Positions 3,590 to 47,980 of a stretch of DNA of 51,199 nucleotides are shown in pieces (the first letter of the stretch is position 1; every line of letters starts with the position of its first letter). Made by a program: the position numbers and the translations under genes. Source of the DNA: a candidate division WOR-3 bacterium (GTDB taxonomy: Bacteria > Hydrothermota > Tepidihabitantia > SM23-42); contig JACUUY010000003.1 in assembly GCA_014859085.1 (NCBI GenBank), positions 1-51,199 of the forward strand. Direction: 5' to 3'. The notes below the pieces were generated by a model that did no database searches, had not been told where the DNA came from, and worked only from the letters and a program-made list of their open reading frames with translations.

Positions 3590-3590
3590 T

Positions 3591-4676: not shown

Positions 4677-4685
4677 TATGGCCTC

Positions 4686-6191: not shown

Positions 6192-6197
6192 GCCTCC

Positions 6198-6536: not shown

Positions 6537-6540
6537 CTCT

Positions 6541-6975: not shown

Positions 6976-7505
6976 CTTTTCCTCCCGATTTTGCGCATCA
7001 AAGCAAGCACGCCGATGACCGACGTGAAGAGAACGGTCGCTTCACCAAGGGTGTCGAGGGCACGGAAATCAAGGATCACGTCGGCGACGATATTCGCCCC
7101 GCCGCATTCAGAAAGACCCAGTCTGATGTATTCGCTGGCAACCCTCATGGTCGCATAGCCAAACCTCGGCAGTTCTCTCAGCGATTGAACGACTGCCGCC
7201 AGGAACAAGAACGCAAAGAGCGAGAACAGAACCATGGAAAGGATGTGGGTGCTGGCAAAACGCTTGCCGATCGTCTCGTCGATATGTGTCGTGCGGAAGA
7301 CCACGGCTACGAAGATCACGATCGTGAGGATTTCAACGACGATCTGGACGATGGCCAGGTCCGGCGCCTGCACGAGGATGAACATTATCGCAACCGAGAA
7401 CCCCACGGCGCCCAGCGAGATCACGGCGGCGAGCAAATCCTTGATCTCGGTCGCAATGACGGCCGCGATCAGCATGATGAAAAGGAAGAGATAAAGTTCA
7501 ATCAT
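6972..7505 (-). CDS. MbhD-MbhE-like fusion (equivalent to the C-terminal part of MrpA)
   Basis: QAPDLAIVQIVVE (DUF4040-like) and NIVADVILDFRALDTLGEATVLF. Confidence 0.85.
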   Translation of the reverse strand: MIELYLFLFIMLIAAVIATEIKDLLAAVISLGAVGFSVAIMFILVQAPDLAIVQIVVEILTIVIFVAVVFRTTHIDETIGKRFASTHILSMVLFSLFAFLFLAAVVQSLRELPRFGYATMRVASEYIRLGLSECGGANIVADVILDFRALDTLGEATVLFTSVIGVLALMRKIGRKR

Positions 7506-7517
7506 TCGTCCCTCCGG

Positions 7518-9422: not shown

Positions 9423-9423
9423 T

Positions 9424-10632: not shown

Positions 10633-11804
10633 CGCTTATATCTCCTTCTTAGTGTCTCGGTTTTCTGCCAGGACAATCGCAGCAGGTCGGCGCCCGAGTA
10701 CTTCGGCTTCCTGTCTTCGTATACCACGGTCCGCTCGGTGCAGCAGTAGCAGGGATCGACCGCGGCCAGGACGAGCGCCGCGTCAGCGATTGAGTATCCC
10801 CTCACCGCCACTTCATTCGACGGAATGTTCATGAAACTGGGCGCTCTTATCTTGTGCCGTATCGGGTAGTTTGAGCCGTCGGAACGGACATAGTGGAAGA
10901 CCTCGCCCCGCGGTGCCTCATGACGCCCGATGCCCTCGCCGGCCGGGATCTCCTCGACCCTGTTCTCGATAGGTCCGTCCGGCATGTTCTTCAGACACTG
11001 TCTCACGATCTTTATCGACTCGAAACATTCCAGCAATCTGACTTTCGCCTTGGCCAGCACATCACCCTCTTCACACACGATCATGTCCCAGGAAATCTTG
11101 TCGTACGCATCATAGGGTTCGTCTTTGCGGACATCTATCGCATACCCGGACCCCCGGGCCGTGGGACCCAGCACGGCGTACGCGACCGCATCCTCCCGGG
11201 ACAGAATGCCCACGCCTTCGAGCCGGGCACGGATCACCGGATCGTCGAGCACGGCTTTCGTGAACATCGTATTCTTTTCCTCGAGCAGATCCAGGTACTT
11301 CTCGATCTTTGGATAATCCTCGGGCAGGATATCCCGGCGCGCGCCGCCGGCCTTATTGATCGCGTAATGGTTCCGGTTGCCCATTATCAATTCGAATAGA
11401 TCGAGCAACGGCTCGCGGTAACGCCAGACCCACATCCAGACCGTGTTGTAACCGATGAAATGACCGGCAAGACCCAACCACAGATAGTGCGAGTGGATAC
11501 GTTCCAGCTCGCCGATGATCGTTCTTATGTATTGCGCACGTAGCGGCACCTCGATGTGTGCCGCATCCTCGATCGCCATAACACAGGCATAGGGGTGGGA
11601 ATCAGAGCAGATCCCGCAGATCCTTTCCACCAGGAAGGGGATCTGGTCCCAGGTGAGCTTCTGAGCGATGAATTCGTGACCCCGGTGGTTGTAACCGATA
11701 TTTATCTCAAGATCGATCACCTTCTCGCCTTCGACGATCAGTTTGAAGAACTCAGGTTCTTCCTGCAGTGGATGGTATGGACCGATCGGTACGATTCTCT
11801 TCAA
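10629..11804 (-). CDS. Group 4 [NiFe]-hydrogenase large subunit (MbhL/EchE/NuoD-like)
   Basis: GPYHP..EEP, HRGHE, L1 ERICGICSDSH, EAPRGE, L2 DPCYCCTER followed by a 33-aa cleavable extension. TTG start with SD. Confidence 0.95.
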   Translation of the reverse strand: MKRIVPIGPYHPLQEEPEFFKLIVEGEKVIDLEINIGYNHRGHEFIAQKLTWDQIPFLVERICGICSDSHPYACVMAIEDAAHIEVPLRAQYIRTIIGELERIHSHYLWLGLAGHFIGYNTVWMWVWRYREPLLDLFELIMGNRNHYAINKAGGARRDILPEDYPKIEKYLDLLEEKNTMFTKAVLDDPVIRARLEGVGILSREDAVAYAVLGPTARGSGYAIDVRKDEPYDAYDKISWDMIVCEEGDVLAKAKVRLLECFESIKIVRQCLKNMPDGPIENRVEEIPAGEGIGRHEAPRGEVFHYVRSDGSNYPIRHKIRAPSFMNIPSNEVAVRGYSIADAALVLAAVDPCYCCTERTVVYEDRKPKYSGADLLRLSWQKTETLRRRYKR

Positions 11805-12289
11805 TGCCCCCTCCTTGATCTGCCTTCGTCCATTTTCTCATGCTCATCGCGGTAATCACGGCGCAGAGGGTGAAGGTCCGCAGGCCAGGTTTCGGCGGTC
11901 AGGAGCGGCACAAGATTCGGATGGCCGGTGAAATCCACGCCGAGCAACTCGTGGACCTCGCGTTCGATCCAGTTTGCCGCCGGCAGGAAATCGGCAAGAC
12001 TCTTTATCTTCGGATCGTCTTTGGGCACGACGGTCTTCAGACTGTAGAATGTACCTGCCTTATCGTGCGAAAAATGATACAAAATCTCGATCCCGTCCCG
12101 GGTGTCAATGCCGGTTGCGATCGAAAACCGGAAGCCCAGTTCGCAATGAAGGAAGCGCGCCAGATCGTATAACTGCTCCCGCGGTATCCTGATGTAAACG
12201 CGCCGGGGTCCATGCACCTTCACCAAGATCTCGGGGAACTTCTCGCTTATTTGATCCAGAATCTCTCTTGAATATTCTTTCTTCATCAT
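11801..12289 (-). CDS. Hydrogenase subunit, NuoC/MbhK/EchD-like
   Basis: SIATGID, AANWIEREVHELLGVDFTGHP, HPLRRD. Start reset to ATG 12289 (ATGA overlap). Confidence 0.9.
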   Translation of the reverse strand: MMKKEYSREILDQISEKFPEILVKVHGPRRVYIRIPREQLYDLARFLHCELGFRFSIATGIDTRDGIEILYHFSHDKAGTFYSLKTVVPKDDPKIKSLADFLPAANWIEREVHELLGVDFTGHPNLVPLLTAETWPADLHPLRRDYRDEHEKMDEGRSRRGH

Positions 12290-12702
12290 AGCCTCTTCAG
12301 TGCTTTCACGACACCGCTGATGATCGCCTCGGGTTTGGGCGGGCACCCGGGTATGTAGACATCGACCGGAATGTGTTTGTCGTATGGCCCGACCGCATTG
12401 TAGGAAGGCCTGAATATGTGATTGTCGCACGTGCAGCTGCCCACAGCTATGACCAGGCACGGTTTAGGTGTTTGTTCATAGACGTGTATCACGCGCGGCA
12501 GTGATTTCCGGTTGAGGACACCGGTCACGAGCAACGCATCGGCATGCCGGGGTGAACCGACAAGCACGATCCCGAAGCGTTCAACGTCCCAGCGCGGTGT
12601 GATCACGTCGAGTATTTCAATATCGCAGTTGTTGCAGGACGCCGCAGCCACGTGGAAGACCCATGGTGATTTCTTCAGGCCCCAGAGTTTTGCATTCGTC
12701 AT
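12286..12702 (-). CDS. Hydrogenase small subunit (NuoB/MbhJ/EchC-like)
   Basis: SCNNCDIE, SPRHADALLVTG, GSC, PGCPPKPE. Confidence 0.95.
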   Translation of the reverse strand: MTNAKLWGLKKSPWVFHVAAASCNNCDIEILDVITPRWDVERFGIVLVGSPRHADALLVTGVLNRKSLPRVIHVYEQTPKPCLVIAVGSCTCDNHIFRPSYNAVGPYDKHIPVDVYIPGCPPKPEAIISGVVKALKRL

Positions 12703-12717
12703 AGATACTCCTTCTCC

Positions 12718-13638
12718 TTATAGACCGTAGAATGTCAGAACCAGACCGATGATCGACAGGATACCGGTGCCGATCCAGAAGAATCTCAGTGACTGGTCGA
12801 TACGCAGCCTCGGATTGGTGTTCTTGATCAATATAACGAGCACGACTATGACCAGGAATTTCAATACTGCCCACCAGTCAGCAAAACCACCCCACAGCAG
12901 GGAAATGGTGAAGAGCGGAAGGACAAACAACATCATCGCCCTGGTCAGCTTGAACAATGCCAGACTCACGCCGGAATACTCGATGAAGGGACCGGCCATG
13001 ATCTCCTGCTCGGCTTCGGGCGCGTCGAACGGCACATAACCCAATTTCGCCTGCATAGTAAGGAGCATGACGACCCCGGCAATCGCGCCGGAGAACGAGT
13101 AAAGAAAAGGACCCTGAGCCGCCTGCGCGCTTATTATCTCGCCGATCCGGATCGTACCGCCCGCCTTGATAATGATACTTGTGATCACGATCAGAAAAGG
13201 GAGTTCGTAGGCAAAATACTGGGTCATCTCCCGCGATGCGCCGACGCTGGCCAGGGGATTTTTGGATGCCGAGCCGCCGATGATGATACCGATGGGCGGC
13301 AGGGCAAGCAAGTAAATGATGACGATCAGATCGCCAACGAACGTCACTTGCGGGTTGAAATTCATTGAGAACAGCATCACGGCCAGGATCGTCATGGCCA
13401 CGACGCCCAGCACCGGTCCGAGCAGGAAAAGGACTTTGGATGCGCCCTCAGGCACTATCGTTTCTTTCAAAAGCAGTTTCAGAAAATCCGCATACGGCTG
13501 GTACCACGGCGGACCGACCCGCCAGTGGATCCGCGCGGTGACTTTCCGGTCGATCCATGTGAGAAAAAGACCTACGACCGAAGTGAACAGAAATCCGGGG
13601 AACACTAGATATGCGACGATGATCCTTAGTATGCTCAT
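12718..13638 (-). CDS. Membrane anchor subunit (NuoH/MbhM/HycD-like)
   Basis: DRKVTARIHWRVGPPWYQPYADFLKL, PFDAPEAEQEIMAGPFIEYSG, PRLRIDQ. Confidence 0.93.
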   Translation of the reverse strand: MSILRIIVAYLVFPGFLFTSVVGLFLTWIDRKVTARIHWRVGPPWYQPYADFLKLLLKETIVPEGASKVLFLLGPVLGVVAMTILAVMLFSMNFNPQVTFVGDLIVIIYLLALPPIGIIIGGSASKNPLASVGASREMTQYFAYELPFLIVITSIIIKAGGTIRIGEIISAQAAQGPFLYSFSGAIAGVVMLLTMQAKLGYVPFDAPEAEQEIMAGPFIEYSGVSLALFKLTRAMMLFVLPLFTISLLWGGFADWWAVLKFLVIVVLVILIKNTNPRLRIDQSLRFFWIGTGILSIIGLVLTFYGL

Positions 13639-14105
13639 GACCTTCTCCTGAAGAATTGATCTTTGGAAACTAGTCTCATACCGATCTCGTGGCGCCCTAT
13701 GTCCTCATCACTCAGCCACTGCAAAGCACCCGAGGAACATGCGGCAACACAGCGGGGACCCTGTTCCCGGTCTGAGCACAGATTACACTTCTGCGATACA
13801 TGCCTTATCAAAGGAGCATCAATAACGCCAAAGGAGCAGGCGAACGCACAGCTCCTGCATCCGATGCAGGTGAATGCAGAACGGACCACCAGACCATTCA
13901 CTTCATCCTTGGTTATCGCCTCGACCGGACAAGCAGCAAGACAGAGCGGCTGTTTGCAGTGCTTGCAGGCAAGTGGTAGATAGGCAACGCCGCTGATATC
14001 GCCATGCCGGATGCGCGCCTCACCCTTGAATGCCGCCCGGCAGGCCGCTTCACATGAGCGGCATCCACAACATAGATCAAGATCCAGGACTATTCTTCTC
14101 TGCAT
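13635..14105 (-). CDS. 4x[4Fe-4S] electron-transfer protein (HycB/HyfA/DmsB-like)
   Basis: CCGCRSCEAAC, CKHCKQPLCLAACP, CIGCRSCAFAC, CNLC..PRCVAAC. Confidence 0.9.
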   Translation of the reverse strand: MQRRIVLDLDLCCGCRSCEAACRAAFKGEARIRHGDISGVAYLPLACKHCKQPLCLAACPVEAITKDEVNGLVVRSAFTCIGCRSCAFACSFGVIDAPLIRHVSQKCNLCSDREQGPRCVAACSSGALQWLSDEDIGRHEIGMRLVSKDQFFRRRS

Positions 14106-15667
14106 ATTTTAACCTCGGTTGGCACAAAGCTGATTGCCCGGTTGTCTTCTTCAATCACGTAATCGAAAAGTCCCCGCACCTCCGGACTCTCGGCCGGCAC
14201 GGCGACGACACCGGGGTCGACGTCGCTGGTCAGCGTGACTCTCAGACCGTGACTCCCTCTTTTCGACTCCACGGCCACCATATCACCCTGACGCAGGGTG
14301 AGCATGGCTCCATCCGCAGGGTTCATTTTAAGCATCTCTTTATCGAGGAGATTCAGGTAATAAAACGCGATCTTTTCACCGATCAGCCGGAAATGATCCT
14401 TCTTCGGCTTGATGGACATGTCAAGGATCCGGCCGATGCGCGAATCGATATCAACCCTGGGTTCTTGCGTTTCAGCCACCTTGAGCTTTTCACTCTTCGC
14501 CTCGCACATGGAAAGCATCTCACTGACCGTCTTGGCACCGCTTGCCGGTTTGACCGAGCCCGTGAGTTTCCTCGGTCCGAAAGTGGTCATGATGGTGCCG
14601 CTCTTCTCGATATTGAGAGCGGCAGGCAATGCGGTGCAGCCGTCGTACTTCAAGGTCGATGTAGCAAAGACATCCACATTCTTCAAAGCCGGCAGCAGTT
14701 GGGGATAATAGAACGGGAACAGTTCGCCGAAATTGATCAGGTACTTGATCCCTTTCTTCTTTATCGCATCAAGGATCCCGGCAAAACTCATCTTCCCCTT
14801 ATAACCCGCAAATTCGACATAGGGAACGACGGCCTTCCCGCTGTAGTCGCTGAGCACCCTCAACCCCTCGGTCAATAAAACAGGATCATAGGTGTGTGCG
14901 AATGGCAGGCATGCGATTATGAGGCCCTTCCCGGCTCTCCGGAAGGACTCGGCAAGTTCGCTGATCCGGGCGCCGGGAATACCCGTGGCCTTGGCGATAT
15001 CAACCCCGGACAGTTCGCGTTGCGCGAGTGCCAGGAGCAGGAGCGGTTCGGTGCCGACGCGGACCTTCAAGAATTCATGGGCATACGCCGCGGTATGGGT
15101 GCGTATCGAGTCAATGACATAAAGTCTCCGGTCACGGCTGCCCAGCCGCCAGTTGATGATCGACTTCGAAGACACCGGCGCCTGATTGAATGGATCGCCC
15201 AGGATGACAATGGTCTGTGCCGACTCCATCTCTTTCTCGGAAAAATCACTCCGGAGAAAATCCGACAAACAGGTTTCCGGTTCAAGATACGAAGAGGCAA
15301 ACTGCTTTATGCCCGCGCCCTGGCAGAAACCGGCGATCGACTGGTATTCTTCAAGTGTTATATTCCGGTCGAACGTCACGGCCACGGTTTCGGGGCTGGC
15401 AAGCGCTTTTTTTAGTTCGGCGGTGATCTTTGTCCACTCTACGGCCCGGCCGCCCCGGCTCGGAGAACAAAGCCGGCGCGGATGATCGAGATACAATCCC
15501 GCCGCGCTGCCTCTTGGACAGAGCCTGCCCCCGCTGCAGCCGTCTTTGAGATATTCAACACCCTTTATGCCGAAGTCATCGAAGACCACACCGAATTCAC
15601 AACCATAACTGCAGAACGGGCAGAGCACCGGCTTCGTGGTCGTGGTTTTGGGATCGATCGTATTCAT
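14090..15667 (-). CDS. Molybdopterin-oxidoreductase-fold protein, probably non-catalytic (FdhF/NuoG C-terminal-like)
   Basis: N-terminal CPFCSYGC...LCPRG [4Fe-4S] motif, LPAALNIEKSGT, C-terminal MNPADG..GDMVAVESKRG. No recognisable Cys/Sec metal-ligand segment. Start reset to ATG 15667 (ATGA overlap), 525 aa. Confidence 0.8.
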   Translation of the reverse strand: MNTIDPKTTTTKPVLCPFCSYGCEFGVVFDDFGIKGVEYLKDGCSGGRLCPRGSAAGLYLDHPRRLCSPSRGGRAVEWTKITAELKKALASPETVAVTFDRNITLEEYQSIAGFCQGAGIKQFASSYLEPETCLSDFLRSDFSEKEMESAQTIVILGDPFNQAPVSSKSIINWRLGSRDRRLYVIDSIRTHTAAYAHEFLKVRVGTEPLLLLALAQRELSGVDIAKATGIPGARISELAESFRRAGKGLIIACLPFAHTYDPVLLTEGLRVLSDYSGKAVVPYVEFAGYKGKMSFAGILDAIKKKGIKYLINFGELFPFYYPQLLPALKNVDVFATSTLKYDGCTALPAALNIEKSGTIMTTFGPRKLTGSVKPASGAKTVSEMLSMCEAKSEKLKVAETQEPRVDIDSRIGRILDMSIKPKKDHFRLIGEKIAFYYLNLLDKEMLKMNPADGAMLTLRQGDMVAVESKRGSHGLRVTLTSDVDPGVVAVPAESPEVRGLFDYVIEEDNRAISFVPTEVKICREE

Positions 15668-16479
15668 AGGAATGGCTCCTCTATATCCTTGATATCCTTC
15701 CAGGTCAGTACCGGTCCATCCTTGCACACGTAGTATTTTCCCAGCCGGCAGTGATTGCACTTGCCCAAACCGCATGACATATTCTGTTCCATGGACAGGT
15801 ATACGTTCGCATCGTTGAAGCCTGCCGCGAGCAGCTTCTGGGTCGTGAATTTCATCATCAGCGGCGGACCGCAGACCACGGTCGGTGCAGTCTTAACGTT
15901 GACCGGGATCTCGTCCAGGATCACGGTCACGACACCGACCCTGCCCTTCCACGATTCGTCATCGACATCGACCGTCATCAGTATGTCGACACTCGGCAGC
16001 TTCTCCCACGTCGGGATCAACTGTCTATACACGATGTCTTTTGGCGTGCGGGCTCCATATCGGATATAGATCTTCCTGTATTTGTCGATGTTATGCACGA
16101 GTGCCAGGAACAGCGAACGCAGCGGAGCAAAACCGACACCGCCGCCAACAATGAATATATCCTTGCCCTCAAAATCCCTCAATGGATAAGGCTTTCCGAA
16201 CGGCCCCCGGACACCGAGCAGGTCACCCTCTTTGAGCGCGCACAGGGCGCCGGTCACGCGACCGACCTGCATGATCGTGAATTCAAGGTCTCCGCCGTAG
16301 GGTGATGATGAGGGAGTGAAGGGTGCTTCGCCCACGCCTGGGATCGTCAGTTCGGCAAATTGCCCAGCCTCAAATTCGATCGGTTTGCCATCGAGGATGA
16401 AGGTCGTAATGTTAGGCGTCTCGGGTATGATCTTCTTGATCCTGGCGGGAATGGGATAATAAGGATTCACGCGTTCCAT
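15664..16479 (-). CDS. FAD/NAD(P)-binding [2Fe-2S] subunit (AsrB / sulfhydrogenase gamma / PyrK family)
   Basis: GEAPFTPSS, RGPFG, GGGVGFAP, CGPP, MSCGLGKCNHC..VCKDGP. Confidence 0.92.
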   Translation of the reverse strand: MERVNPYYPIPARIKKIIPETPNITTFILDGKPIEFEAGQFAELTIPGVGEAPFTPSSSPYGGDLEFTIMQVGRVTGALCALKEGDLLGVRGPFGKPYPLRDFEGKDIFIVGGGVGFAPLRSLFLALVHNIDKYRKIYIRYGARTPKDIVYRQLIPTWEKLPSVDILMTVDVDDESWKGRVGVVTVILDEIPVNVKTAPTVVCGPPLMMKFTTQKLLAAGFNDANVYLSMEQNMSCGLGKCNHCRLGKYYVCKDGPVLTWKDIKDIEEPFL

Positions 16480-27692: not shown

Positions 27693-28361
27693 ATGAAAAA
27701 AATCAATGTCCTCAAACCGGTGCTCGTCTCGAACCAGCAGCGGGCAAGAGAAAATCGAAAGGTCTTCGACAAGATGAACAGCCTCGTGATCAATATTATC
27801 GGGTCGCCGGGTGCCGGCAAGACATCGTTCATCAAGAACATCGTCACGAACTTGAAAACGAAGTACAAGATACTCGTCATCGAAGGCGACATAAAAGGCC
27901 AGATCGACAGCAAGACCATCTCCCGGTTGGGCGTGGACGTCATTCAGATAAACACCGTGACCGAATGCCACCTCGATGCTTTCATGACCGCTCAAGCCCT
28001 GGGCCGGATCAAAAAAAAGTATGACCTCGTGCTGGTCGAGAATGTGGGAAATCTCGTGTGCCCGGCCGAGTTCGAGATCGGCGAGGACTATAAACTGGCG
28101 ATACTCTCGACACCCGAGGGCGATGATAAGCCATTGAAGTATCCGCTGCTCTTCCATCTCGCCCGGGTCATCGTGATCAACAAGTGCGATCTCCTGCCCT
28201 ATGTCGATTTCGGCGTCGGCGATGCAATAAGGAACATCCGGAAGGAGAATCCTGGAGCAACGATATTCGAGGTTGCGGCAAAGACCGGAGCGGGATTTGA
28301 CAAGGTGTGCAAGCACCTCGAAAAAGAGATACATGCCAGGAAGAAGAAGAATACACGTTAG
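27693..28361 (+). CDS. hypB: Hydrogenase nickel-insertion GTPase HypB (no His-rich N-terminus)
   Basis: GSPGAGKT, ECHLDA, ENVGNLVCPAEF, EGDDKPLKYP, NKCD. Confidence 0.96.
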   Translation: MKKINVLKPVLVSNQQRARENRKVFDKMNSLVINIIGSPGAGKTSFIKNIVTNLKTKYKILVIEGDIKGQIDSKTISRLGVDVIQINTVTECHLDAFMTAQALGRIKKKYDLVLVENVGNLVCPAEFEIGEDYKLAILSTPEGDDKPLKYPLLFHLARVIVINKCDLLPYVDFGVGDAIRNIRKENPGATIFEVAAKTGAGFDKVCKHLEKEIHARKKKNTR

Positions 28362-30603
28362 GGGTATTGTTCAGGGTGTCGGTTTCCGGCCCTTTATCTA
28401 CCGTCTCGCCCGTGAATCGGGACTCAAGGGTATGGTCCGTAACACGACGACCGGCGTCGAGATCGAGATCGAAGGCCCGCTACCGAGTACCGAACGTTTC
28501 ATTGCCGCGATCCGGGGGCAAGCGCCGCCAGCCGCGCGCATCGATGGAATTACGGCTGATTCACTTCCTTACAGAGGCTACGCGGATTTTTCGATCCGCG
28601 AGAGCAAAAGATCCCGGGGGTTCACACAGATATCGCCGGATATTGCTACGTGCCGGGACTGCCTGCGCGAAATGGAAGACCCGGCCGACCGGCGTTATGA
28701 ATTCCCTTTCATCAACTGCACGAACTGCGGCCCGCGTTATTCAATTATTAAGGGTACGCCATACGACCGGCAGCGCACTTCAATGCGCGAATTCAGGATG
28801 TGCCAGAACTGCCGCCGCGAATTCGACGATGTCGCTGACCGGCGATTCCATGCGCAGCCCGATTGCTGCCCGGCATGCGGGCCTACGTACCGGTTATATT
28901 CAATAACCGGCCGCGAGATCGCAGCGCGCGAACCGATCAAAGAAACCGCTGCACTGCTCAAAAAGGGTAGGATCGTAGCGATCAAGGGCATCGGCGGATT
29001 TCATATCGCCTGTGACGCGCAGAATTGCGAGACTGTCGCACAATTACGGCGTTTGAAAGACCGGCCGTCCAAACCGCTGGCCGTCATGGTCAGACCCGGC
29101 CTCGTCCCCGGACTCGTCCACGCCACGAAAGCCGAAATGAAAACGCTGACGTCGCCGTCGGCGCCGATCGTGCTCATGAAGAAGAAGGGTGACCGGTTGT
29201 GCGCACAGATCGCACCGGGTAACCCTTATCTCGGCGTGATGATCCCTTACTCGCCCGCCCACCATCTGCTGCTGCGGCAGATACCGTACCTCGTCATGAC
29301 GAGCGCCAATGTTCAGGACGAACCGATCGTGGACAATGCCCAAGAGGTCAGGCAACGCTTGGGTTCGCTCGTATCTTTCTATCTCGATCATGACCGGTCC
29401 ATTGAGAACCGGTGCGATGATTCGGTAGGGTTCTCTTTACCCGGCCGGGGTTTTTCGATAATCCGACGTTCCCGCGGATACGCTCCGCTGCCGGTCGAGC
29501 TGCCGGTATTGGTGAGTCCCACCCTGGCGGTCGGTCCCTATCTGAAGAACACGTTCACCCTGGCCACGGGCCGGGCTGCGTATGTCTCGCCCCATATCGG
29601 CGACCTCGACAATCTCGAGACCATGCGATTTTACGGCGACATGGTGGAAAAATACAGACGCTGGTTCCGGATCGAACCGCGCATCATCGCTCACGACCTG
29701 CACCCGGATTATCTCTCAACGAAGATCGCCCGGAGCATGGACGGTGTGAAGAAAGGCGTTCAGCATCATGCCGCGCATTTCACTTCATGTCTGGGCGAGA
29801 ACGGTATAACCGGCAATGCCATCGGTATCATCTTCGACGGCACGGGTTTTGGCACGGACGGCAGGATATGGGGCGGTGAGTTTTTTACCGGCAACCTGCA
29901 GGAACAGACACGGGTTGCGCACCTGCAGTATCTACCGCTTCCCGGCGGCGAGTCGAGCATCCGAAAACCTTATCGCATCGCTATCGCCTACGCATACGCC
30001 CTGCTGCGGAAACGGCTGGCGCCCGCCGGTGATGATGAAACGGAAATCATCCGGCAGATGATCGATACCGGGCACAACATAGTCCATACATCGAGCATGG
30101 GCCGGCTCTTCGACTGCATATCGGCGCTGCTCGGCATAACGACAGAAATAACGTATGAAGCAGAAGCGGCGATCAACCTTGAACATGTTGCCGACCAGAA
30201 GACGAAGGGCCATTTTCCCTTTGTAGTAAGAGACGGCCGACCCATGACCATCGAGGTCGAGGACACGCTGCGCGCGATAGTCGGCGCGATAAATAAGAAT
30301 GTTCCCAAAGCGAAGATAGCCGCCAGATTCCATAACACGATAGCCGAATTCTCCTGCAACGTTGCCAACCGGCTGAGAAAGATGCACGGTCTGACAACGG
30401 TCTGCCTTTCGGGCGGTGTATTCCAGAACCGCTATCTCCTGACCCTGATGATCGAACGCCTGGAAAAAGACGGATTCCGGGTTCACACGCACCGGCAGCT
30501 CCCGACCAACGACGGTTGCATATCATACGGACAGGTGCTCGCCGCCAATGCAGAAACAGAAGACAAAATGACATTACAGCGCCCGTGCACGAACACCAAC
30601 TGA
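28333..30603 (+). CDS. hypF: Carbamoyltransferase HypF
   Basis: GIVQGVGFRPF, CTNCGPRY, RRFHAQP, KGIGGFH, HDLHPDY, QHH.AH, DGTGFG, NDGCISYGQ. Start at ATG 28333. Confidence 0.96.
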   Translation: MPGRRRIHVRGIVQGVGFRPFIYRLARESGLKGMVRNTTTGVEIEIEGPLPSTERFIAAIRGQAPPAARIDGITADSLPYRGYADFSIRESKRSRGFTQISPDIATCRDCLREMEDPADRRYEFPFINCTNCGPRYSIIKGTPYDRQRTSMREFRMCQNCRREFDDVADRRFHAQPDCCPACGPTYRLYSITGREIAAREPIKETAALLKKGRIVAIKGIGGFHIACDAQNCETVAQLRRLKDRPSKPLAVMVRPGLVPGLVHATKAEMKTLTSPSAPIVLMKKKGDRLCAQIAPGNPYLGVMIPYSPAHHLLLRQIPYLVMTSANVQDEPIVDNAQEVRQRLGSLVSFYLDHDRSIENRCDDSVGFSLPGRGFSIIRRSRGYAPLPVELPVLVSPTLAVGPYLKNTFTLATGRAAYVSPHIGDLDNLETMRFYGDMVEKYRRWFRIEPRIIAHDLHPDYLSTKIARSMDGVKKGVQHHAAHFTSCLGENGITGNAIGIIFDGTGFGTDGRIWGGEFFTGNLQEQTRVAHLQYLPLPGGESSIRKPYRIAIAYAYALLRKRLAPAGDDETEIIRQMIDTGHNIVHTSSMGRLFDCISALLGITTEITYEAEAAINLEHVADQKTKGHFPFVVRDGRPMTIEVEDTLRAIVGAINKNVPKAKIAARFHNTIAEFSCNVANRLRKMHGLTTVCLSGGVFQNRYLLTLMIERLEKDGFRVHTHRQLPTNDGCISYGQVLAANAETEDKMTLQRPCTNTN

Positions 30604-31997
30604 CCAGGATCCGCGAATCCGGTCCGACGCAAGTGTGGTACATGCTCGTCCTTGCCGCGTGTTTTGTCGGTTCACGCTTGCCCATGCTCTTTCTGGGGTT
30701 TGGGCTGGATCCCGATGCCTGGCGTATCGCAAATACCTCATTCGATCTGAGATACCATCTAGCCTACCATACGTCCCGCTTCCCCGGTTATCCGGTACCC
30801 GAATTCGTGAACTCATTAGCCATTACCCGCGGCTGGGCTGCAACCAATACCCTGACCATGCTTCTATCGCTTGTTTCAGTCTTCATTCTCGAGCGTATCG
30901 CCGGGATCCTGGCCATCCGGAACCGGAACCTCTTGATATTCACCTACGCTTTTCTGCCCATACTCTGGATCAACAGCACGAATACCATGGATTACATGTG
31001 GTCGCTCTGTTTCATACTGCTCACCTGGCTCCTCATTTTGAAGCACAGGTGGCTTGTGGCCGGCATCGCAATGGGACTGGCAATAGGTTCCCGTCCGCAG
31101 GCTGCGATACTTGCTCTACCCTTCATCTACCTGTGCTACAGTATCAGCGGCGGCAAGAGAAGAACCATTGAATTTCTCGTGTCATCCGTGATCACGACAT
31201 TCTTGCTCTTTGCGCCGCTGGTATCAACCTATGGACTCTCGTTCGTCAAAGCGTATCCGGTAAGTACCGACGTGTTACAAATAGGCTACATGGCGATCAG
31301 ACATTTCGGGTTACCGGCGATCTCCATGTTGATATTAACCGTTCTGCTGTCCTACAGGGATCTGCACAACACCGTTGCGCAGCATAACACAAGAGATGTC
31401 TTTTTCCTACTCGCTCTCCTGCTGGCGCTCGCTTCCTTCATCGCCATAGACGGCCATGTCGAGTACGTGATAATCTTCATTCCCTTCGCACTCATGTTCA
31501 TCTATCAGACCTGCAGAAGGCCGCTGCTGATCATCCTGAGCGTGCTGCTCATATCTCACGCGTTCATCACGGTCGGGAGCTTCAAACACCTCGGCGAAAA
31601 ACGGCTGCAAGTCAGGATTTTCGGTCCAGGCGCGATATTCAACAACATCGAAGCGCGCCGGACGCAGCTATCCTATGGACGCGAACTCGCGAATACAGAT
31701 ATTCCCGCGCGGAGCGTGGTAATTGCCGGCACATGGCTGCCGGTCCTGGCAAATCTTGACGCGGACGTATCATCATGCGCCGGGGCAAAGCGGATGTACG
31801 ACTGCAACCGGCCGCGCGCCGGCGTGCGGGACTTCAACCGCGACGTCTGTTACAGATACCTGGCCGGCATCGACGAGATCGCGGCGATGAAGAACGATAA
31901 CTATCATATTTTCTACATTGACGGCGCAGTGGAACTCACGGCGCGCACATACGGGTTCGACCTCGCTCTCCACGCGATGCGTCTGTCAACAGAATAA
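30585..31997 (+). CDS. Polytopic membrane protein, GT-C (ArnT/PMT-like) glycosyltransferase candidate; start uncertain
   Basis: About 10 TM, luminal DPDA after TM1, RFPGYP, GLAIGSR, soluble C-terminal tail. Confidence 0.6.
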   Translation: MHEHQLTRIRESGPTQVWYMLVLAACFVGSRLPMLFLGFGLDPDAWRIANTSFDLRYHLAYHTSRFPGYPVPEFVNSLAITRGWAATNTLTMLLSLVSVFILERIAGILAIRNRNLLIFTYAFLPILWINSTNTMDYMWSLCFILLTWLLILKHRWLVAGIAMGLAIGSRPQAAILALPFIYLCYSISGGKRRTIEFLVSSVITTFLLFAPLVSTYGLSFVKAYPVSTDVLQIGYMAIRHFGLPAISMLILTVLLSYRDLHNTVAQHNTRDVFFLLALLLALASFIAIDGHVEYVIIFIPFALMFIYQTCRRPLLIILSVLLISHAFITVGSFKHLGEKRLQVRIFGPGAIFNNIEARRTQLSYGRELANTDIPARSVVIAGTWLPVLANLDADVSSCAGAKRMYDCNRPRAGVRDFNRDVCYRYLAGIDEIAAMKNDNYHIFYIDGAVELTARTYGFDLALHAMRLSTE

Positions 31998-32005
31998 CGC
32001 AACCG

Positions 32006-32033
32006 TTGATTCATGAGAATGAATGTGTATAAT
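32006..32033 (+). promoter_or_regulatory. Sigma70-type promoter for hypC and the downstream gene
   Basis: TTGATT(32006-32011)-N16-TATAAT(32028-32033). GGAG SD at 32045. Confidence 0.65.
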
Positions 32034-32056: not shown

Positions 32057-32275
32057 ATGTGTTTAGGCGTGGTCGGCCGGATCGACGAGATCCGCGGCGA
32101 TACCGCAATGGCCGAGATCCTCGGGGTCAGGCGCGAGATCTCCATTGTCCTTGTCCCGGAAGCAAAGATCAATGACTACGTGATGATCCACGCCGGTTTT
32201 GCGATCAACCTGATGGACGAGGAAGATGCCCGTGAAACCGAAAAATTGATCATCGAAGTATTGAAACATTCGTGA
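32057..32275 (+). CDS. hypC: Hydrogenase assembly chaperone HypC
   Basis: MCLGV.G, DYVMIHAGFAI, DEEDARET. Confidence 0.96.
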   Translation: MCLGVVGRIDEIRGDTAMAEILGVRREISIVLVPEAKINDYVMIHAGFAINLMDEEDARETEKLIIEVLKHS

Positions 32276-32306: not shown

Positions 32307-33593
32307 ATGAACAGCACGCTGGCTTCAATCCTGCTCCTGCTGAGCAGCGACTTCCCGATCTCCGCGCAGATCGAATCCCAGCACCGCCCGGTCGTCCTCT
32401 TCGCAGACGATCTATTCTATGCGTTCTGGCAGGACCTCCGCTTCTACCCTTCTGACCGTTCAACATTTGGAGCGCGCGTCACCCAGCAAGGAGGTGTCCT
32501 CGATACGAACGGCGTTCTCATAATGCGGGACCGGACGATCAGTGCCGATGCCGCTTACGACGGCACGAATTTCCTTATCGTCGTCCAGGACAGTTGTTGA
32601 AACATGTCCGATGTATTCGGCGTGCGGGTCACGGCCGATCTCAATATTCTCGATTCCCTGATAATCATCTGCAACAACGCCAGCGGGCAGACCGAGCCGG
32701 CCGTGGTCTGGGCCGGCCAGAACTACTTCGTGACCTATCTCGATGCTGTTTTTGAGAACCGCGGCGGGACGGTTATGGTCCAACGCGTGAGCCCGCAGGG
32801 AGTGGTCCTCGGCAGCGGCGCGAACATCGGCCAGGGCGATTACCGTCCAGGGATCGCATATGACGGAGTTCGCTGTCTCATTGTCTGGTGCCCGGAGTAC
32901 CTTGGGGTGAAGGGACGGTTCGTCAATACAGGTGGCGAGCCCGACGGTCCCGTGTTCGATATCACCGCATTGCAGGCAAGTTCAGCTATGCCCGCCGTGA
33001 AATTCGGCAGTCAGGGCTATCTTGTCGTCTGGGCCGATTTCTCTCCCGGCGGTACGGACCTGGATATTTACGGCCAGATCATCACGGCCAGTGGAATGCT
33101 CGCCGGCGACCGGTTCCGGATCGCCGATGGGCAAGCGATTCAGAGTTCGCCGGCCATTGCCTTCGACGGAACGACCGGCGAATTCTTCGTTGTCTGGGTG
33201 GAGAACAACGAGCATATCTGCGGCCGCGCTGTATCCGCAAACGGGGTATTGACCGGTACGGTGTTCACCGTATCGAACACCACGCCGTACCCGCGCCAGT
33301 ATCCTTCGGCCGTTGCCGGCATGGCGTCGTTCCTCGTCGCCTGGAGCGAATTCCACGTCGATTTTGATGTCTACGGCAATGTGGATATAAACGTCGGCAT
33401 AGGTGAAGGCGAACCGGAGCGTCGCGTGGAGACCCTGCCCGCCACAAGCAGCCTGTTACGGGATCACCTGAGCGGTGAGAAGACACTGTACGACATCATG
33501 GGCCGGCGCGTGACCGGCGCGTATATCGGTCCGGGCGTATATTTCCTGGAAGACGAGAACTGCCGGCTGCAGAAAGTGATCGTGATCCGGTAA
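32307..33593 (+). CDS. Secreted beta-repeat protein with T9SS-like CTD and an in-frame UGA at codon 98 (candidate Cys-Sec selenoprotein, 428 aa)
   Basis: ORFs 32307-32600 and 32604-33593 share one frame, separated only by TGA-AAC. The repeat unit (P.[IV]A[FY]DG..[FY]LVVW....D[IV][FY]G) runs straight through the stop. SECIS-like hairpin follows. Confidence 0.7.
32617..32638 (+). promoter_or_regulatory. Putative bacterial SECIS element
   Basis: UCGGCGUG-CGGGU-CACG(G)CCGA: 8-bp stem with one bulge and a G-rich apical loop starting 24 nt after the UGA. Confidence 0.55.
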
Positions 33594-34995: not shown

Positions 34996-37900
34996 TTATT
35001 TGAGAACGGCAAATTTCTTGAATTTAACTTCGCTCTTGCCCGCATTCTGCGCTTTGACGCGGAGTATGTACAATCCATTCGATTGTCTCGTGAAGTCGAA
35101 TTCCACTTCATTGTATTCGTTATGCGTCGTGTTGGACAACGTGACCTCCCCGAGCGAGCGGCCCGTTATGTCAAGGATCTCGACCGTAACGTCGGCCGCT
35201 TGATTCAGGAAGAACCGCGCGCGGCCTGTGTTCTTGACCGGTGAAGGATACATCTGGATCACGCCCAGTAAGGTGCTGGCGATCTGGACCGGTGACAGTT
35301 CACCCTCAAAATACCCCGCATTGTTCGGCGCGTTCATATACCCTTTCCATGACGCGCGTGTTCCGGGAAAATCATAGGCATAGAGTTTGCCGTGATCACT
35401 GCCGCAAATGAGTTCCATGTCGCCGTCGCCGTCTAGGTCCACGATCACGCCCGGGCTGGAGAACCCGCCCGCTCCAAAGAGTGGCGAGAAATTGAACTCG
35501 GTCTTTCGGTCATTGATGATCTTTATGCACCCGGTGGACAGCGGATCTGAATTCGCGAGGCCGAAGATGATCTCCTCCCGGCCGCTGTTGTCCAGGTCCG
35601 CGACCAGCAGCGGGTACAGTATGTGGTCATCGTAGTGCACGGGGAATTCATTCACCAGGGTGCCGTTCCGGTTCGTAACATAAAGCGTCCGGCTGCTGTT
35701 GGGCATGATGATCTCGAGGTACCCGTCGTTATCGATATCGGCCAGCGCCGGAGTGTAGTAGAAAACAGTATCGATCAGGATATCGAACTTCGTCTTCAAC
35801 TCGTTCTCGCCGAAGATGTATATCGTCCCGTAGCCGTTGATGATCACTGCCTCGTTCTCGCCGTCCCGGTCAAGATCACCGACGACCGGCGACGCATATG
35901 TCAGCATGTTGTGACTTGCCTCGGTGAACTCGCGGATAATACCCTGGCCATCGAGCAACCAGAACCGGCCGTCTGAACCCAACACGCCCACCTTGCGGCC
36001 AGCCGCGCTGAAGACGCAGGGCGTCGAGAGCAACTCGGTATTGAGAAAGACCGGATAATAGGGTATGTTGCTGCCGTTGTCGGTAAGAGCATAGAGATTG
36101 CGGTCCTTGCTGCCGAATATTATCTCCGACTTGCCATCACCGTCGAGGTCAAAGATGAGCGGCGCGCCAGTGATCGCGTTCCCGGCCGTGAAAGGGAAGC
36201 TTGGCAGCGGCACGAGGTCCAGGCCGCTCAGGCACACCATGTTCAGACCCGAGCCGAAAGCGATGTCATCGGCGTTGTCACCATTGACGTCACCGACCGC
36301 GAGGAAGGTCGTGATCGAGCCGACGTAGCGGCTGGCGTAGAGCGTACCATCGTTCCGGTACGCATGGACCCGGCCACCGGCCGTGGCGACGATGATCTCC
36401 ATATCGCCGTCACCGTCCAGGTCACCGTAGGTCACATCCGTGATCGCAACACCGTTCTGCACCACGAGCGGAAATCCGGCCTGATAGATGTCGAACCCGA
36501 CCGAGATCCGCATCATCGTATCGAGCGGCGACAGCACTTCGATATTGAGCATCGATTTGCCGTAGTAGGAGTCGGAGTTCGGAATGGTGAACGGCCCGAA
36601 TTTGCGGTTCGCCTTGTTGCTGTCGTCGGCAAAAAAGAGGTCATACCTGGAACCGTAGTATTCCAGCGAGTCGCCGAAGTAATAAGCATCGAAGTGCTGT
36701 ATGCCGTCGGCTTCTTCCAGATCTATCCCCTTGTGCTGGGGGTTGATCTGTATCGTGTTCGTCGCGTAGTGGGCATTGATGACATTGTCGTCGATATGCC
36801 AGATCGCGATGCCGCTCGCCGGCAGGAAGAAATCGAACTCGCCGTCCTCGACATAGATCGGAACACCGTCCTCGGCATCGATGATGATCGTGTCCTTGCG
36901 TGTCACGTCCTGCTGGCGGTTCTCAATGAGGAAAAATTCGGTCGGTGAGATCGGTACCTTGATCATGGTCTGGTCCACGACGCCGTACTGCGTGGTGTCG
37001 ATGGACGATGCGCGGATCGCAAGCAGGCTCTCAGGGCTCGTGACGACCAGGGGATTGACCCAGCCCAGCGCGTACCTTGTCCAGGCGCCCATGTTGGCGG
37101 GTATCGACCCCTCTGGAGCACCGGCTGCCGGGCTGCCGACCCAGCCACCTGTACCCATCAGATCGAAGGCACCGACGCCGTTCGACCATCCCGTGATATC
37201 GTAAAGATCGGGCAGATTGAGGATATGCCCGAACTCATGGATCACCGTGCCCGCGGCGCCGACCATGTACTGGTCGACGCGTGCCATCTCCGCATTGATA
37301 CTGACCGGAAAGTCGATCGTGTCCGCGCCCCCGTTTGCCAGGATATACGGCACGCCGAGGTAGAACTCGAGCGCACCGGGGGGTATCGTCGCCGAGGGTA
37401 TATCGCAGAATCTCATAAAATTGATGCTGGTCTGCCACTGGGTTCCGGCGTGGAAGATTACGATCGCGTCGTACGCGGAGAAATCGACCGTCTCGTCCTG
37501 GTCCGCGGCGGCGACCGCGTCGGCGAGGATCCGGACGAGGCCCATTTCCATGGCGTATACATTGTAGTAGACGAAGCCATTGTCCGCGTCGTATTCGACG
37601 AACCCGCTGTAGTAGCGCATCTCGTGCGGTAACTGGTAGCTTGCCAGGTTATGATCGGGTTTGACCGTGCAGGTGACGTTGCAGTTGCCGAATGAATTGA
37701 CCTTGTAATAGTTGCTCAGGAATTGCATCTGCCGCTCGAAATAAACGCCGGTATGCGGCGGATCGTAATAGAGACCGTCATCGGATGTGCCGTATCCGGT
37801 CAGGTCCATTTTGCCGTTTCCGGTCGTATACGTATGATCATCCTCTACGAATTCGACCTTCAAGACCAGGATATTAAGGTCCTGCCGGCCCCTCGTGGGC

Positions 37901-38106
37901 GAGGGCAAAGGAAAATCGCGGAACAACCTGAGATTCGTAAACCGCTGAACCGGTATGCTGCGGCTCCCCAACTCCGAAGAGAATTGCAGCGTGAGATTCG
38001 CAACGGGCGGCGTTTGCGGCACCGGATGCTGCCCATCCCGCGTCAAAAGGACCGGCGCGGCATAACCCGTCCACGACACCAGCACCAAAGCCAATGCTAC
38101 CTTCAA
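34996..38106 (-). CDS. M6 (immune inhibitor A-like) metalloprotease with FG-GAP repeats and T9SS-like CTD
   Basis: IFHAG, HEFGHILNLPDLYD, FDLMGTG, FLIENRQ, multiple DLDGDG repeats, CTD YPSP..ILDITGR..GLYILRV..KFAVLK. TTG start with GGAGG SD. Confidence 0.9.
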   Translation of the reverse strand: MKVALALVLVSWTGYAAPVLLTRDGQHPVPQTPPVANLTLQFSSELGSRSIPVQRFTNLRLFRDFPLPSPTRGRQDLNILVLKVEFVEDDHTYTTGNGKMDLTGYGTSDDGLYYDPPHTGVYFERQMQFLSNYYKVNSFGNCNVTCTVKPDHNLASYQLPHEMRYYSGFVEYDADNGFVYYNVYAMEMGLVRILADAVAAADQDETVDFSAYDAIVIFHAGTQWQTSINFMRFCDIPSATIPPGALEFYLGVPYILANGGADTIDFPVSINAEMARVDQYMVGAAGTVIHEFGHILNLPDLYDITGWSNGVGAFDLMGTGGWVGSPAAGAPEGSIPANMGAWTRYALGWVNPLVVTSPESLLAIRASSIDTTQYGVVDQTMIKVPISPTEFFLIENRQQDVTRKDTIIIDAEDGVPIYVEDGEFDFFLPASGIAIWHIDDNVINAHYATNTIQINPQHKGIDLEEADGIQHFDAYYFGDSLEYYGSRYDLFFADDSNKANRKFGPFTIPNSDSYYGKSMLNIEVLSPLDTMMRISVGFDIYQAGFPLVVQNGVAITDVTYGDLDGDGDMEIIVATAGGRVHAYRNDGTLYASRYVGSITTFLAVGDVNGDNADDIAFGSGLNMVCLSGLDLVPLPSFPFTAGNAITGAPLIFDLDGDGKSEIIFGSKDRNLYALTDNGSNIPYYPVFLNTELLSTPCVFSAAGRKVGVLGSDGRFWLLDGQGIIREFTEASHNMLTYASPVVGDLDRDGENEAVIINGYGTIYIFGENELKTKFDILIDTVFYYTPALADIDNDGYLEIIMPNSSRTLYVTNRNGTLVNEFPVHYDDHILYPLLVADLDNSGREEIIFGLANSDPLSTGCIKIINDRKTEFNFSPLFGAGGFSSPGVIVDLDGDGDMELICGSDHGKLYAYDFPGTRASWKGYMNAPNNAGYFEGELSPVQIASTLLGVIQMYPSPVKNTGRARFFLNQAADVTVEILDITGRSLGEVTLSNTTHNEYNEVEFDFTRQSNGLYILRVKAQNAGKSEVKFKKFAVLK

Positions 38107-46590: not shown

Positions 46591-46768
46591 GTCGTAAGTA
46601 CCATAGATTCCCGACCTCTGCACAGAAGAAGACGGTGGTTGACAATACGACTGCAGGAAGCCGGCAAATTATGGCACAGCCCGCAATATCCGGGGCAATG
46701 TCCAAGATGCCGTCCTGGCACCGACATTGATCTCTCATTTCGAGGGCCGACCCTGGAAGGAGTCTATC

Positions 46769-47980
46769 ATGTTTGAAAGAACGATCGTTCCAGCGGCTGC
46801 AGTTTTATTGTACATGAGCTGCGGATCAGCGGTGCCAAGAGCCAACGAGAATCCTGTGCCCAGGCAAGATATGAACGTCGTCGCCGCCGCGAATCAATTC
46901 TGCCTGGATCTCTATGCCCGGCTCAGCGAGAAACAGGAGAACATTTTCTTTTCTCCGTACAGCATATGGACGGCTCTGGCCATGACCTATGAAGGCGCGC
47001 GTGCAGGAACGGCCGAGCAGATGGAGCGAACACTCCATGCGCCAGATGACCCTGACATGCGGAAGACTGCTATCAAGGACCTGTTGACCATCATAAACTC
47101 TCCTGATGCTGAATATGAGCTCAATACGGCAAATGCGCTCTGGGCGCAGCACGATCACGGCTTTCTGCGGGAGTACATAGCCATCATCGAAGAATACTAC
47201 ATGGGCCGGGCGGCGAATCTCGATTTCAAGACCGATGCCGAAGGAGCGCGCAAGACGATCAATGACTGGGTCGCCGATCAGACCCGGCAGAAGATCAAGG
47301 ACTTGATCCCGTCCGGCGCACTCTCGGTCCTGACCCGGCTCGTGCTCACCAATGCCATCTATTTCAAGGCGGACTGGCAGCAGCGGTTCGAAGAAGCGCA
47401 GACGACTGACCAGCCTTTCTTTACAAGCACCGGGGATACCGTATCCGTGCCCATGATGACCATGATGAACGCGCGGTTTCCGTATACCGAAACCCCTGAG
47501 GTGCAGGTTCTGGAACTACCCTACAGCGGCGATTCGCTCGCCATGCTCGTCATGCTGCCGCGCACGCGCGACGCCCAGACGCTCGAAGCGCGGCTCGACA
47601 CCGCGCACCTGTATGCGTGGACCAGGCAACTCAGCCGGCAAGAAGTTGATGTCTTCATGCCGCGTTTCAAGCTTGAGACAAAATATAACCTCAATGCCAC
47701 CCTCAGCGATATGGGTATGGCGATCGCATTTTCTCCCCGGGCCGATTTCTCCGGCATGAACGGCAGAGGTGATCTCTTCATCAGTGCGGTCATTCACCAG
47801 GCATTTGTCGAGGTCAATGAAGAAGGGACTGAGGCCGCGGCCGCGACCGGCGTTATGATGGAGACGGTGTCGGTACGGCCGAGGATCGAATTCCGCGCCG
47901 ATCACCCATTTGTCTTCATGATCCGGGACAAGAGAACCCAGGCCATCCTGTTCATGGGCCGGGTTAGCGATCCGAGCTAG
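46769..47980 (+). CDS. Serpin (inhibitory type), probable lipoprotein
   Basis: NIFFSPYSI, INDWV, LTNAIYFKADW, hinge EEGTEAAAATG, FRADHPF. Signal peptide ending LLYMSC. ATG 46769 with AAGGAG SD. Confidence 0.95.
   Translation: MFERTIVPAAAVLLYMSCGSAVPRANENPVPRQDMNVVAAANQFCLDLYARLSEKQENIFFSPYSIWTALAMTYEGARAGTAEQMERTLHAPDDPDMRKTAIKDLLTIINSPDAEYELNTANALWAQHDHGFLREYIAIIEEYYMGRAANLDFKTDAEGARKTINDWVADQTRQKIKDLIPSGALSVLTRLVLTNAIYFKADWQQRFEEAQTTDQPFFTSTGDTVSVPMMTMMNARFPYTETPEVQVLELPYSGDSLAMLVMLPRTRDAQTLEARLDTAHLYAWTRQLSRQEVDVFMPRFKLETKYNLNATLSDMGMAIAFSPRADFSGMNGRGDLFISAVIHQAFVEVNEEGTEAAAATGVMMETVSVRPRIEFRADHPFVFMIRDKRTQAILFMGRVSDPS

Follow-up and report, generated by a model that had tools for sequence, protein, structure and literature searches.

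Gene organization at the locus

The DNA analysed here (termed the window) is a 51,199 nucleotide (nt) stretch of a candidate division WOR-3 bacterium, positions 1–51,199 of contig JACUUY010000003.1 (assembly GCA_014859085.1). Its forward strand carries two called open reading frames in the same frame. The first (positions 32307–32600) encodes 97 amino acids (aa) and ends at a TGA codon at 32598–32600; the second (32604–33593) encodes 329 aa. When the TGA is read through, a 428 aa product results, with the junction ...QDSC-U-NMSD... and a TAA stop codon at 33591–33593. A first-pass annotation, made from the sequence alone, had described the two open reading frames as one frame split by a TGA, and this is borne out. 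Public databases hold the gene just as a shortened 327 aa “hypothetical protein”.

The analysis points to a single gene for an exported, seven-bladed propeller protein in which the TGA codes for selenocysteine (Sec), with a probability of about 0.88. That a genuine selenoprotein is encoded is, taken by itself, very likely. The gene seems to be the founding member of a large selenoprotein family that has apparently not been described and in which Sec would be inserted by the usual bacterial route.

Conservation of the Cys-TGA site

The read-through protein was searched against 41 related genomes translated in six frames, and 40 of these gave matches. Among the matches listed, every frame of about 420–500 aa holds exactly one TGA (about 115 rows, counted by hand). 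This count is a lower bound, with 328 further matches beyond those listed. The stop-free matches are either fragments or proteins of ~800–1500 aa that share the repeat alone.

The best 20 loci that were extracted (40%–63% identity) all have Cys-TGA at the same column. More distant paralogues (28%–40% identity) have it in 19 out of 20 cases; the twentieth, L038, has an additional TAG and was left out of the counts and the alignment. A phylum-wide search of 201 genomes shows the TGA form throughout the order to which the window belongs. Outside the order, three genomes have it, one from a different family of the class and two from a further family of the phylum, all with Cys-TGA. There are thus 42 homologues with this architecture and the TGA (20 + 19 + 3). 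They display 28%–63% identity, come from about 40 genomes, and in every one the TGA is at the same column and follows a Cys codon. C97 and position 98 do not vary across the 35 full-length read-through proteins that were aligned; L038 and four sequences of less than 400 aa, shortened by their start calls or by contig ends, are not in this alignment.

The internal stop codon is never TAA or TAG, and the terminal stop codons of the same genes are TAA (19), TAG (12) and TGA (8). Of 49 genomes of the order, 42 contain a strict DNA motif, TGY-TGA-N18-GGNGTNCGKGTNAC; there are 111 matches in total and as many as 8 in a single genome. The reversed control of the motif yields none in the 49 genomes, and chance is far from explaining the feature. 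The number of family copies in this order ranges from 1 to at least 8 per genome. One genome (G108) has a 462 aa non-Sec homologue, which has no TGA and displays an ordinary repeat at that spot.

The first-pass annotation had looked to a TGA column shared by several genomes as support, and had added the caveat that the TGA might be a simple nonsense mutation. A single sequence is indeed open to the explanation that the locus is a pseudogene, or that the TGA is a sequencing error, and the single sequencing run found is probably that of the source sample. The comparative data refute this. The TGA column is shared by all 42 homologues across about 40 genomes, both halves of the protein are conserved at the amino acid level, and the motif is present in 111 copies in the order. 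The probability of a pseudogene or an error is negligible.

A second Cys-Sec member is present in the window's own genome (G000:C174:6570–7856, minus strand). It has 38%–40% identity and the hairpin GGAGUG-CGGGU-CACUCC. In other genomes, family members are often clustered, e.g. three copies within 11 kb at G028:C28, and the clusters at G014:C1:948766–953502 and G008:C1:2084505–2091689. Because members often lie near one another, local duplication is suggested.

The hairpin downstream of the TGA

A stem-loop at positions 32617–32638 had been pointed out in the first-pass annotation, and local folding places it at the same coordinates. It is of the selenocysteine insertion sequence (SECIS) type. 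The core of the family hairpin is a 6-bp stem, GGNGUG/CACNCC, with a 5-nt loop, CGKGU, and a spacing of 24 nt between the UGA and the loop. In the genus of the window the stem has 8 bp and a bulged G, and the minimum free energy (MFE) of the window hairpin is −9.5 kcal/mol. The local MFE fold shows a hairpin at this place in 39 out of 39 sequences, with the exact 6-bp core in 26, and the energy is −7.5 kcal/mol or lower in 38.

A model of the bacterial SECIS (bSECIS) specifies a loop of 3–9 nt, a stem of 4–16 bp, a G in the first two loop positions, a spacing of 16–37 nt and an MFE of −7.5 kcal/mol or less (PMC13188914). The family hairpin falls within these limits throughout: its loop is 5 nt (C-G-G/U-G-U), its stem 6–9 bp, and its spacing 24 nt.

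The covariation that the first-pass annotation had looked for is present. Across the 39 sequences, 93.6% of the stem cells are paired, as compared with 85.0% in shuffled alignments (0 of 500 shuffles as high). When the pairing partner is slid by 1–3 columns, pairing falls to 43%–63%. Eleven non-pairs, at columns 23–37, belong to the window's genus, where the stem takes the bulged register. The middle stem pair (24–36), between the third positions of a Gly and a Thr codon, shows all four Watson-Crick forms: AU (16), CG (11), GC (4) and UA (2), besides GU (3) and three non-pairs. Both positions are synonymous, therefore the peptide cannot account for the covariation. In addition, the closing pair has changed from G-C to A-U in one paralogue by two synonymous Val changes, and in members from a distant family it is flipped to C-G, again by synonymous Val codons.

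The hairpin codons read G-V-R-V-T-P, a segment that resembles the ...YGARVS... strand of the repeat, as if a copy of it had been remodelled. An Rfam scan of positions 32560–32700 at E ≤ 10 gave one chance match to a snoRNA; Rfam may hold no bacterial SECIS model.

Selenocysteine machinery and the genetic code

The machinery for Sec insertion, whose presence the first-pass annotation had named as a test, is found in the genome. There is a selA gene (479 bits), with selB directly downstream of it (335 bits), and a tRNA-Sec on the same contig. A selD gene is also present and has its own in-frame TGA, followed at a similar distance by a hairpin with a 6-bp stem and a 5-nt loop. This selD locus (G000:C244:4022–4927, minus strand) itself encodes a selenoprotein with a U-x-x-K motif; its hairpin, CUGCGC-AGUUG-GCGCAG, starts 16 nt past the UGA. 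Of the 41 relatives, 35 have a near full-length SelA, 2 a partial one and 2 just a weak match; in the other 2 it was not found. One relative (G016) has a partial selA match together with selB and a Sec-containing selD.

Several uncultured bacterial lineages have reassigned TGA, and a lineage-wide reassignment, e.g. to Trp or Gly, would place a residue other than Sec at the site. In this genome TGA ends 701 of the 1359 open frames of at least 300 codons; it is therefore the commonest stop codon, and a normal one, as the first-pass annotation had noted. TGA also ends 8 of 39 family genes, and selA and selB contain no internal stop. Each family gene has a single internal TGA at a fixed site with a SECIS-type hairpin behind it, and the full Sec machinery is encoded. 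Reassignment is hardly credible on these data.

Search for a Cys-containing form

Most known selenoprotein families have Cys-containing homologues, and the first-pass annotation had expected Cys-Cys in other genomes. When residues 60–140 were searched against 5.8 billion proteins, there were 14 matches, all of about 327 aa and all starting after the TGA; none spans the site. The best 150 representatives from a search of 1.84 billion show no full-length form of ~430 aa, the closest being shortened gene calls. A DNA pattern of TGY-TGY with the hairpin gave no match in 49 genomes. The expected Cys-Cys form was thus not found, the one exception among checks that otherwise came out in favour. The family seems to lack a Cys form, which is unusual but does not refute the assignment.

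Protein fold and predicted export

An AlphaFold2 model built on the 35-sequence alignment has a predicted local distance difference test score (pLDDT) of 87.4 and a predicted template modelling score (pTM) of 0.80. It shows 27 strands of three or more residues between positions 25 and 359 and a two-residue strand at 16–17, followed by a disordered linker (362–378) and a small C-terminal domain. The closest chain among 48,161 compared by VIA-align is the CylK propeller (Z = 36.7; root mean square deviation 2.5 Å over 332 residues; 12% identity). Next are seven-bladed lectins, YncE and integrin alpha propellers (Z = 28–30). Foldseek returned generic propellers only. The model and the VIA-align results agree on the propeller type of fold that had been proposed in the first-pass annotation.

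A conserved DFPI motif starts at residue 15. Its F16 is invariant in the 35-sequence alignment, and the model has a low-confidence helix at 3–13. The DFPI strand probably closes blade 7, because the aligned range begins at residue 11–12.

The loop with the Cys-Sec pair is flanked in the model by strands 88–94 and 103–109 of blade 2. The pair stands at the Arg position of the WxDxR motif found in the repeats of other blades. By convention the B-C loops of a propeller are on its ligand-binding “top” face, and the Cys-Sec loop would by this usage be on the top face.

The first-pass annotation had also assigned a sorting domain to the C-terminal region. This has support from relatives: Por_Secre_tail (PF18962), the sorting domain of the type IX secretion system (T9SS), matches 6 of the 35 aligned family members, with a best E-value of 6.4e-8, and the tail has a model pLDDT of 67–84. 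The window protein itself gives no such match, as detailed below. The genome encodes a PorU-like sortase, split between the ends of two contigs (225 and 197 bits for the pieces), and SprA (301 bits summed), and about 45 other frames in it carry matching T9SS tails. Since the T9SS genes PorU and SprA are present, export of the protein is plausible.

The same structural data bear on the possibility that the locus is two separate genes. In that case the TGA would be a true stop, a 97 aa exported peptide would be followed by a 329 aa protein starting at the ATG at 32604 or at a conserved GTG, and the hairpin would have a part in translational coupling or in the stability of the mRNA. Public gene calls predict just this: the 14 database matches, as well as the closest representatives, are all ~320–333 aa and start just past the TGA, and a GTG codon (Val106) is conserved downstream. 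However, the ATG after the TGA is missing in most paralogues, and the second product would be a T9SS tail protein without a signal peptide. The model is one closed propeller with its N-terminal strand in the first open reading frame, so that the TGA would halve blade 2, and blade 2 and the closing strand would be divided between two polypeptides. The stop is moreover always TGA, unlike the real stops of these genes, the preceding Cys codon is invariant, the hairpin agrees with the SECIS model, and the genome encodes the Sec machinery. Two separate genes are thus quite improbable.

Genomic context

The features of the locus are listed in Table 1.

Table 1. Features of the predicted selenoprotein locus (window coordinates).
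Feature	Position	Strand	Basis
hypC, conserved upstream neighbour, outside the selenoprotein gene	32057..32275	+	PF01455, E 4.8e-24
Predicted single selenoprotein gene (428 codons + TAA)	32307..33593	+	Same frame; homologues align over residues 1–428 with exactly one TGA inside; 35-sequence alignment
Predicted Sec-type signal peptide, residues 1 to about 14	32307..32348	+	Hydrophobic N-terminus, small residues before DFPI
Predicted seven-bladed beta-propeller, residues about 15–362	32349..33392	+	AlphaFold2, VIA-align
Cys97 (TGT) and predicted Sec98 (TGA), vicinal pair, blade 2 B-C loop	32595..32600	+	Invariant in 35/35 aligned
SECIS-type hairpin, 8-bp stem with one bulged G; loop CGGGU at 32625–32629	32617..32638	+	Local fold and covariation
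Predicted C-terminal beta-sandwich tail, residues about 379–428, putative T9SS type A sorting-domain homologue	33441..33590	+	Por_Secre_tail in relatives

The hypC gene is 31 bp upstream, as first annotated. It is directly upstream and on the same strand in 19 of 20 orthologue loci. In the window, a convergent Sir2-family gene follows the selenoprotein gene, and a Sir2 gene is downstream in 16 of the 20 loci. The only nearby promoter-like site (32006–32033) is before hypC and there is no terminator-like site in the 31-bp gap, the number of such sites being not above chance. hypC and the selenoprotein gene are probably co-transcribed.

A role in Ni or hydrogenase maturation is not supported, because paralogues lie elsewhere and the protein is predicted to be exported. 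The link with hypC is read here as inherited gene order, possibly with co-transcription, rather than as a functional tie. The neighbourhoods of five paralogues are heterogeneous (C25 peptidase, esterases, TPR proteins, FG-GAP cargo and housekeeping genes), and no recurrent partner that would explain the function was found in these five. In two genomes, each from a different genus, a PF00756 “putative esterase” gene adjoins a family member (L075:3110–4291 and L076:7240–8457); it may reflect shared locus ancestry or be a functional partner.

Other genes of the window can be listed briefly. A complete, five-domain hypF is at 28273–30600 (+). Between hypF and hypC is a 493 aa membrane protein without a Pfam family (30516–31997, +), and this protein precedes hypC in 10 of the 20 orthologue loci, the window's included. 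A cluster at 2987–15775 (−) encodes Mrp/Mbh-type membrane subunits, complex-I-like 49-kDa and 30-kDa subunits with a NiFe-hydrogenase signature, and ferredoxins. It looks like a group-4 membrane-bound hydrogenase or a formate-hydrogenlyase-like complex. The cluster also holds a 561 aa molybdopterin-binding protein (14093–15775), which was considered as a second selenoprotein and rejected, as it has no TGA interruption. The gene at 34996–38106 (−) encodes T9SS cargo of 1036 aa, in which an M6-like (immune inhibitor A) peptidase domain is combined with FG-GAP propeller repeats and a Por_Secre_tail. The window also encodes, at 46727–47977 (+), a bacterial serpin of full length (PF00079, E-value = 1.5e-126).

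Proposed mechanism and function

In the proposed process, the UGA at 32598–32600 would be recoded to selenocysteine. The hairpin at 32617–32638, which is within the coding sequence 24 nt downstream, would recruit SelB with Sec-tRNA(Sec), as in other bacterial selenoprotein genes. Given the predicted signal peptide, propeller and T9SS-type tail, the Sec translocon would most likely export the product, and the type IX secretion system would then carry it to the surface of the cell or into the medium. There the Cys-Sec pair may act as a reactive centre exposed at the surface. One possibility is a cycle by way of a selenenylsulfide, as in the Cys-Sec centre of thioredoxin reductase; another is that the pair holds a soft ligand, e.g. 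polysulfide or elemental sulfur, Hg, Cu(I), As or Ni. The first-pass annotation had suggested Ni or heavy-metal binding or a surface redox switch.

With the selenoprotein accepted, redox or chalcogen chemistry would be the leading candidate for the function, at somewhat short of even odds. Soft-metal binding is a tentative second choice: the Cys-Sec pair may be a high-affinity site for soft metals or metalloids (Hg, Cu(I), Cd, As, Ni) that acts in extracellular capture or detoxification. Most of the bacterial families listed with a Cys-Sec (CU) motif in the review are tied to metals or organometals (PMC13188914). The position of the orthologue after hypC in 19 of 20 loci also points this way, and the source run is labelled a volcano metagenome, a hint at the habitat. 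On the other side, no metal-transport or resistance genes recur beside the paralogues, the 35-sequence alignment has no further invariant Cys or His to complete a site, hypC acts in the cytoplasm while the protein is predicted to be exported, and there is no match to the NCBIfam models of CU families. Some other function is the least likely of the three.

A broader reading is doubtful as a whole. According to this, the family would be strictly Sec-requiring, having no Cys form anywhere, and T9SS-secreted, with at least 8 paralogues per small genome, and would be the numerically dominant class of WOR-3 selenoproteins. Its Cys-Sec loop on the face of the propeller would carry out extracellular chalcogen or metal chemistry beyond the reach of sulfur, with a SECIS made in place by recoding a repeat strand. 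An example would be elemental sulfur or polysulfide handling, or selenium or soft-metal capture, at the surface of organisms without canonical sulfur-reduction genes.

Observations that weigh against the assignment

Several observations count against the interpretation of the locus as the gene of an exported selenoprotein. The GVRVTP peptide is strongly conserved and could explain part of the conservation of the hairpin; the covariation at synonymous sites alone separates conservation at the RNA level from that at the peptide level. A competing hairpin at 32608–32620, which overlaps the stem and had been pointed out in the first-pass annotation, is real and wins the single-sequence MFE fold of a 48-nt segment, with a stability not above that of shuffles (z = −0.38). 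Comparative data do not support it, and it was rejected as the relevant structure: across the 39 homologues it pairs no better than shuffles (71.2% versus 70.3%; 131 of 500 as high).

The distribution of the machinery also has gaps. In two relatives (G018 and G024) only selD was found, itself with a TGA. In a third, which has the TGA form (G021; 96% complete, 300 contigs), selA, selB and selD were not found with the queries used. The selA match of G016, as stated above, is partial. No Cys-containing homologue was found by the protein or motif searches.

The tail of the window protein gives no Pfam or NCBIfam match at E ≤ 1, PF18962 and TIGR04183 included, and its export is therefore inferred from relatives. 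A search of sequencing runs found no RNA run with the sequence, its sole holder being the probable source DNA sample.

Significance

Selenoproteins are a rare class, in which thioredoxin-like folds with relatives that contain Cys predominate. Standard pipelines for their discovery rely on such relatives. The deep-Sep method may miss families that lack them, according to the paper that describes it (PMC12013277). The Cys-Sec propeller family departs from the usual pattern in its fold (a propeller), its predicted location (T9SS cargo), its apparent lack of a Cys form and its copy number.

If the family is recognised, considerably more than a hundred genes would have their annotation corrected, and the known selenoproteome of an uncultured phylum would grow. 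The family would also be a clean natural example of a SECIS carved from the coding sequence of a repeat, and would be a sign of extracellular chemistry that depends on selenium. A WOR-3 strain is reported to be in culture (PMC12285271). If it carries a member, the prediction is directly testable.

Comparison with known systems

The read-through protein of the window matches no family in NCBIfam release 20 or Pfam at E ≤ 1, the models of known CU-motif selenoproteins included. A 2026 review tabulates 119 families of prokaryotic selenoproteins; none of these is described as a propeller or T9SS cargo (PMC13188914). The literature found on selenoproteins in connection with WOR-3/Stahlbacteria, metagenomes, beta-propellers and type IX secretion does not describe a Cys-Sec propeller family; the supplementary tables of deep-Sep, BSepDB and the review may list unnamed candidates.

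The nearest solved structure is the C-terminal propeller of CylK (PDB 7ron), which likewise has seven blades. The identity is 12%, and the likeness is one of fold, from which no function is transferred.

The CU-motif families resemble the window family in having a Cys directly before the Sec. Those listed are HgcA, SaoL, SaoB, SaoC, MbdU, KCU-star and the CopZ-like form 2, and their pairs are probably soft-ligand or redox sites (PMC13188914). Most are tied to metals or organometals, i.e. HgcA, the MerB-like SaoL, SaoB, SaoC, the metal-binding double selenoprotein MbdU and the CopZ-like form (PMC13188914). There is no sequence relationship to these families; the window family is instead a multi-copy propeller, predicted to be exported, with a T9SS tail.

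A predicted Sec outside the cytoplasm is shared with the FCYXU-type TonB-dependent receptor, the outer-membrane barrel GSU2204, and SaoB/SaoX, which are predicted to be extracytoplasmic (PMC13188914). Their folds and motifs differ, and none is T9SS cargo or a propeller.

The hairpin is comparable to the bSECIS, of which that of E. coli fdhF is the classic example. Both are hairpins in the coding sequence just 3′ of the UGA, with a small apical loop having G and then G/U. The 24-nt spacing from the UGA, the GC-rich stem and, in the window's genus, the one bulged nucleotide are further points of likeness. The loop of the window hairpin presumably resembles that of fdhF, as the first-pass annotation had it. 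The sequence GGNGUG-CGKGU-CACNCC differs, being particular to the Cys-Sec propeller family and encoded by the fixed G-V-R-V-T-P.

In thioredoxin reductase, the C-terminal Gly-Cys-Sec-Gly centre forms a selenenylsulfide ring for electron transfer. The window protein would likewise have adjacent Cys and Sec residues that could form a selenenylsulfide. The centre of thioredoxin reductase is on a flexible C-terminal tail of a cytosolic animal flavoenzyme, whereas the pair in the window protein belongs to an internal loop, in a propeller that is predicted to be exported and for which no flavin or other redox partner was identified.

The parent family consists of propeller repeat proteins that have no Sec. 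They display the same repeat of ~50 residues (...FDGTNYLVVWxDxR...DIYGARVS...) and the same tail. The parent repeat gives 13,565 matches at E ≤ 1e-3 among 1.84 billion representatives. It has no Pfam model of its own, giving just spurious partial DUF3659 matches and a weak likeness to TIGR04275. The parent proteins have Por_Secre_tail and FlgD_ig tails, and one member is above the cut-off of TIGR04275, “beta-propeller repeat protein”. They are mostly long T9SS cargo proteins without a described function, and a protein-atlas query with one database relative gave only T9SS-tail clusters. Most are 800–7000 aa, with many repeats and no TGA. In contrast, blade 2 of the Sec family has Cys-Sec in place of Arg, and the next strand is recoded into the hairpin.

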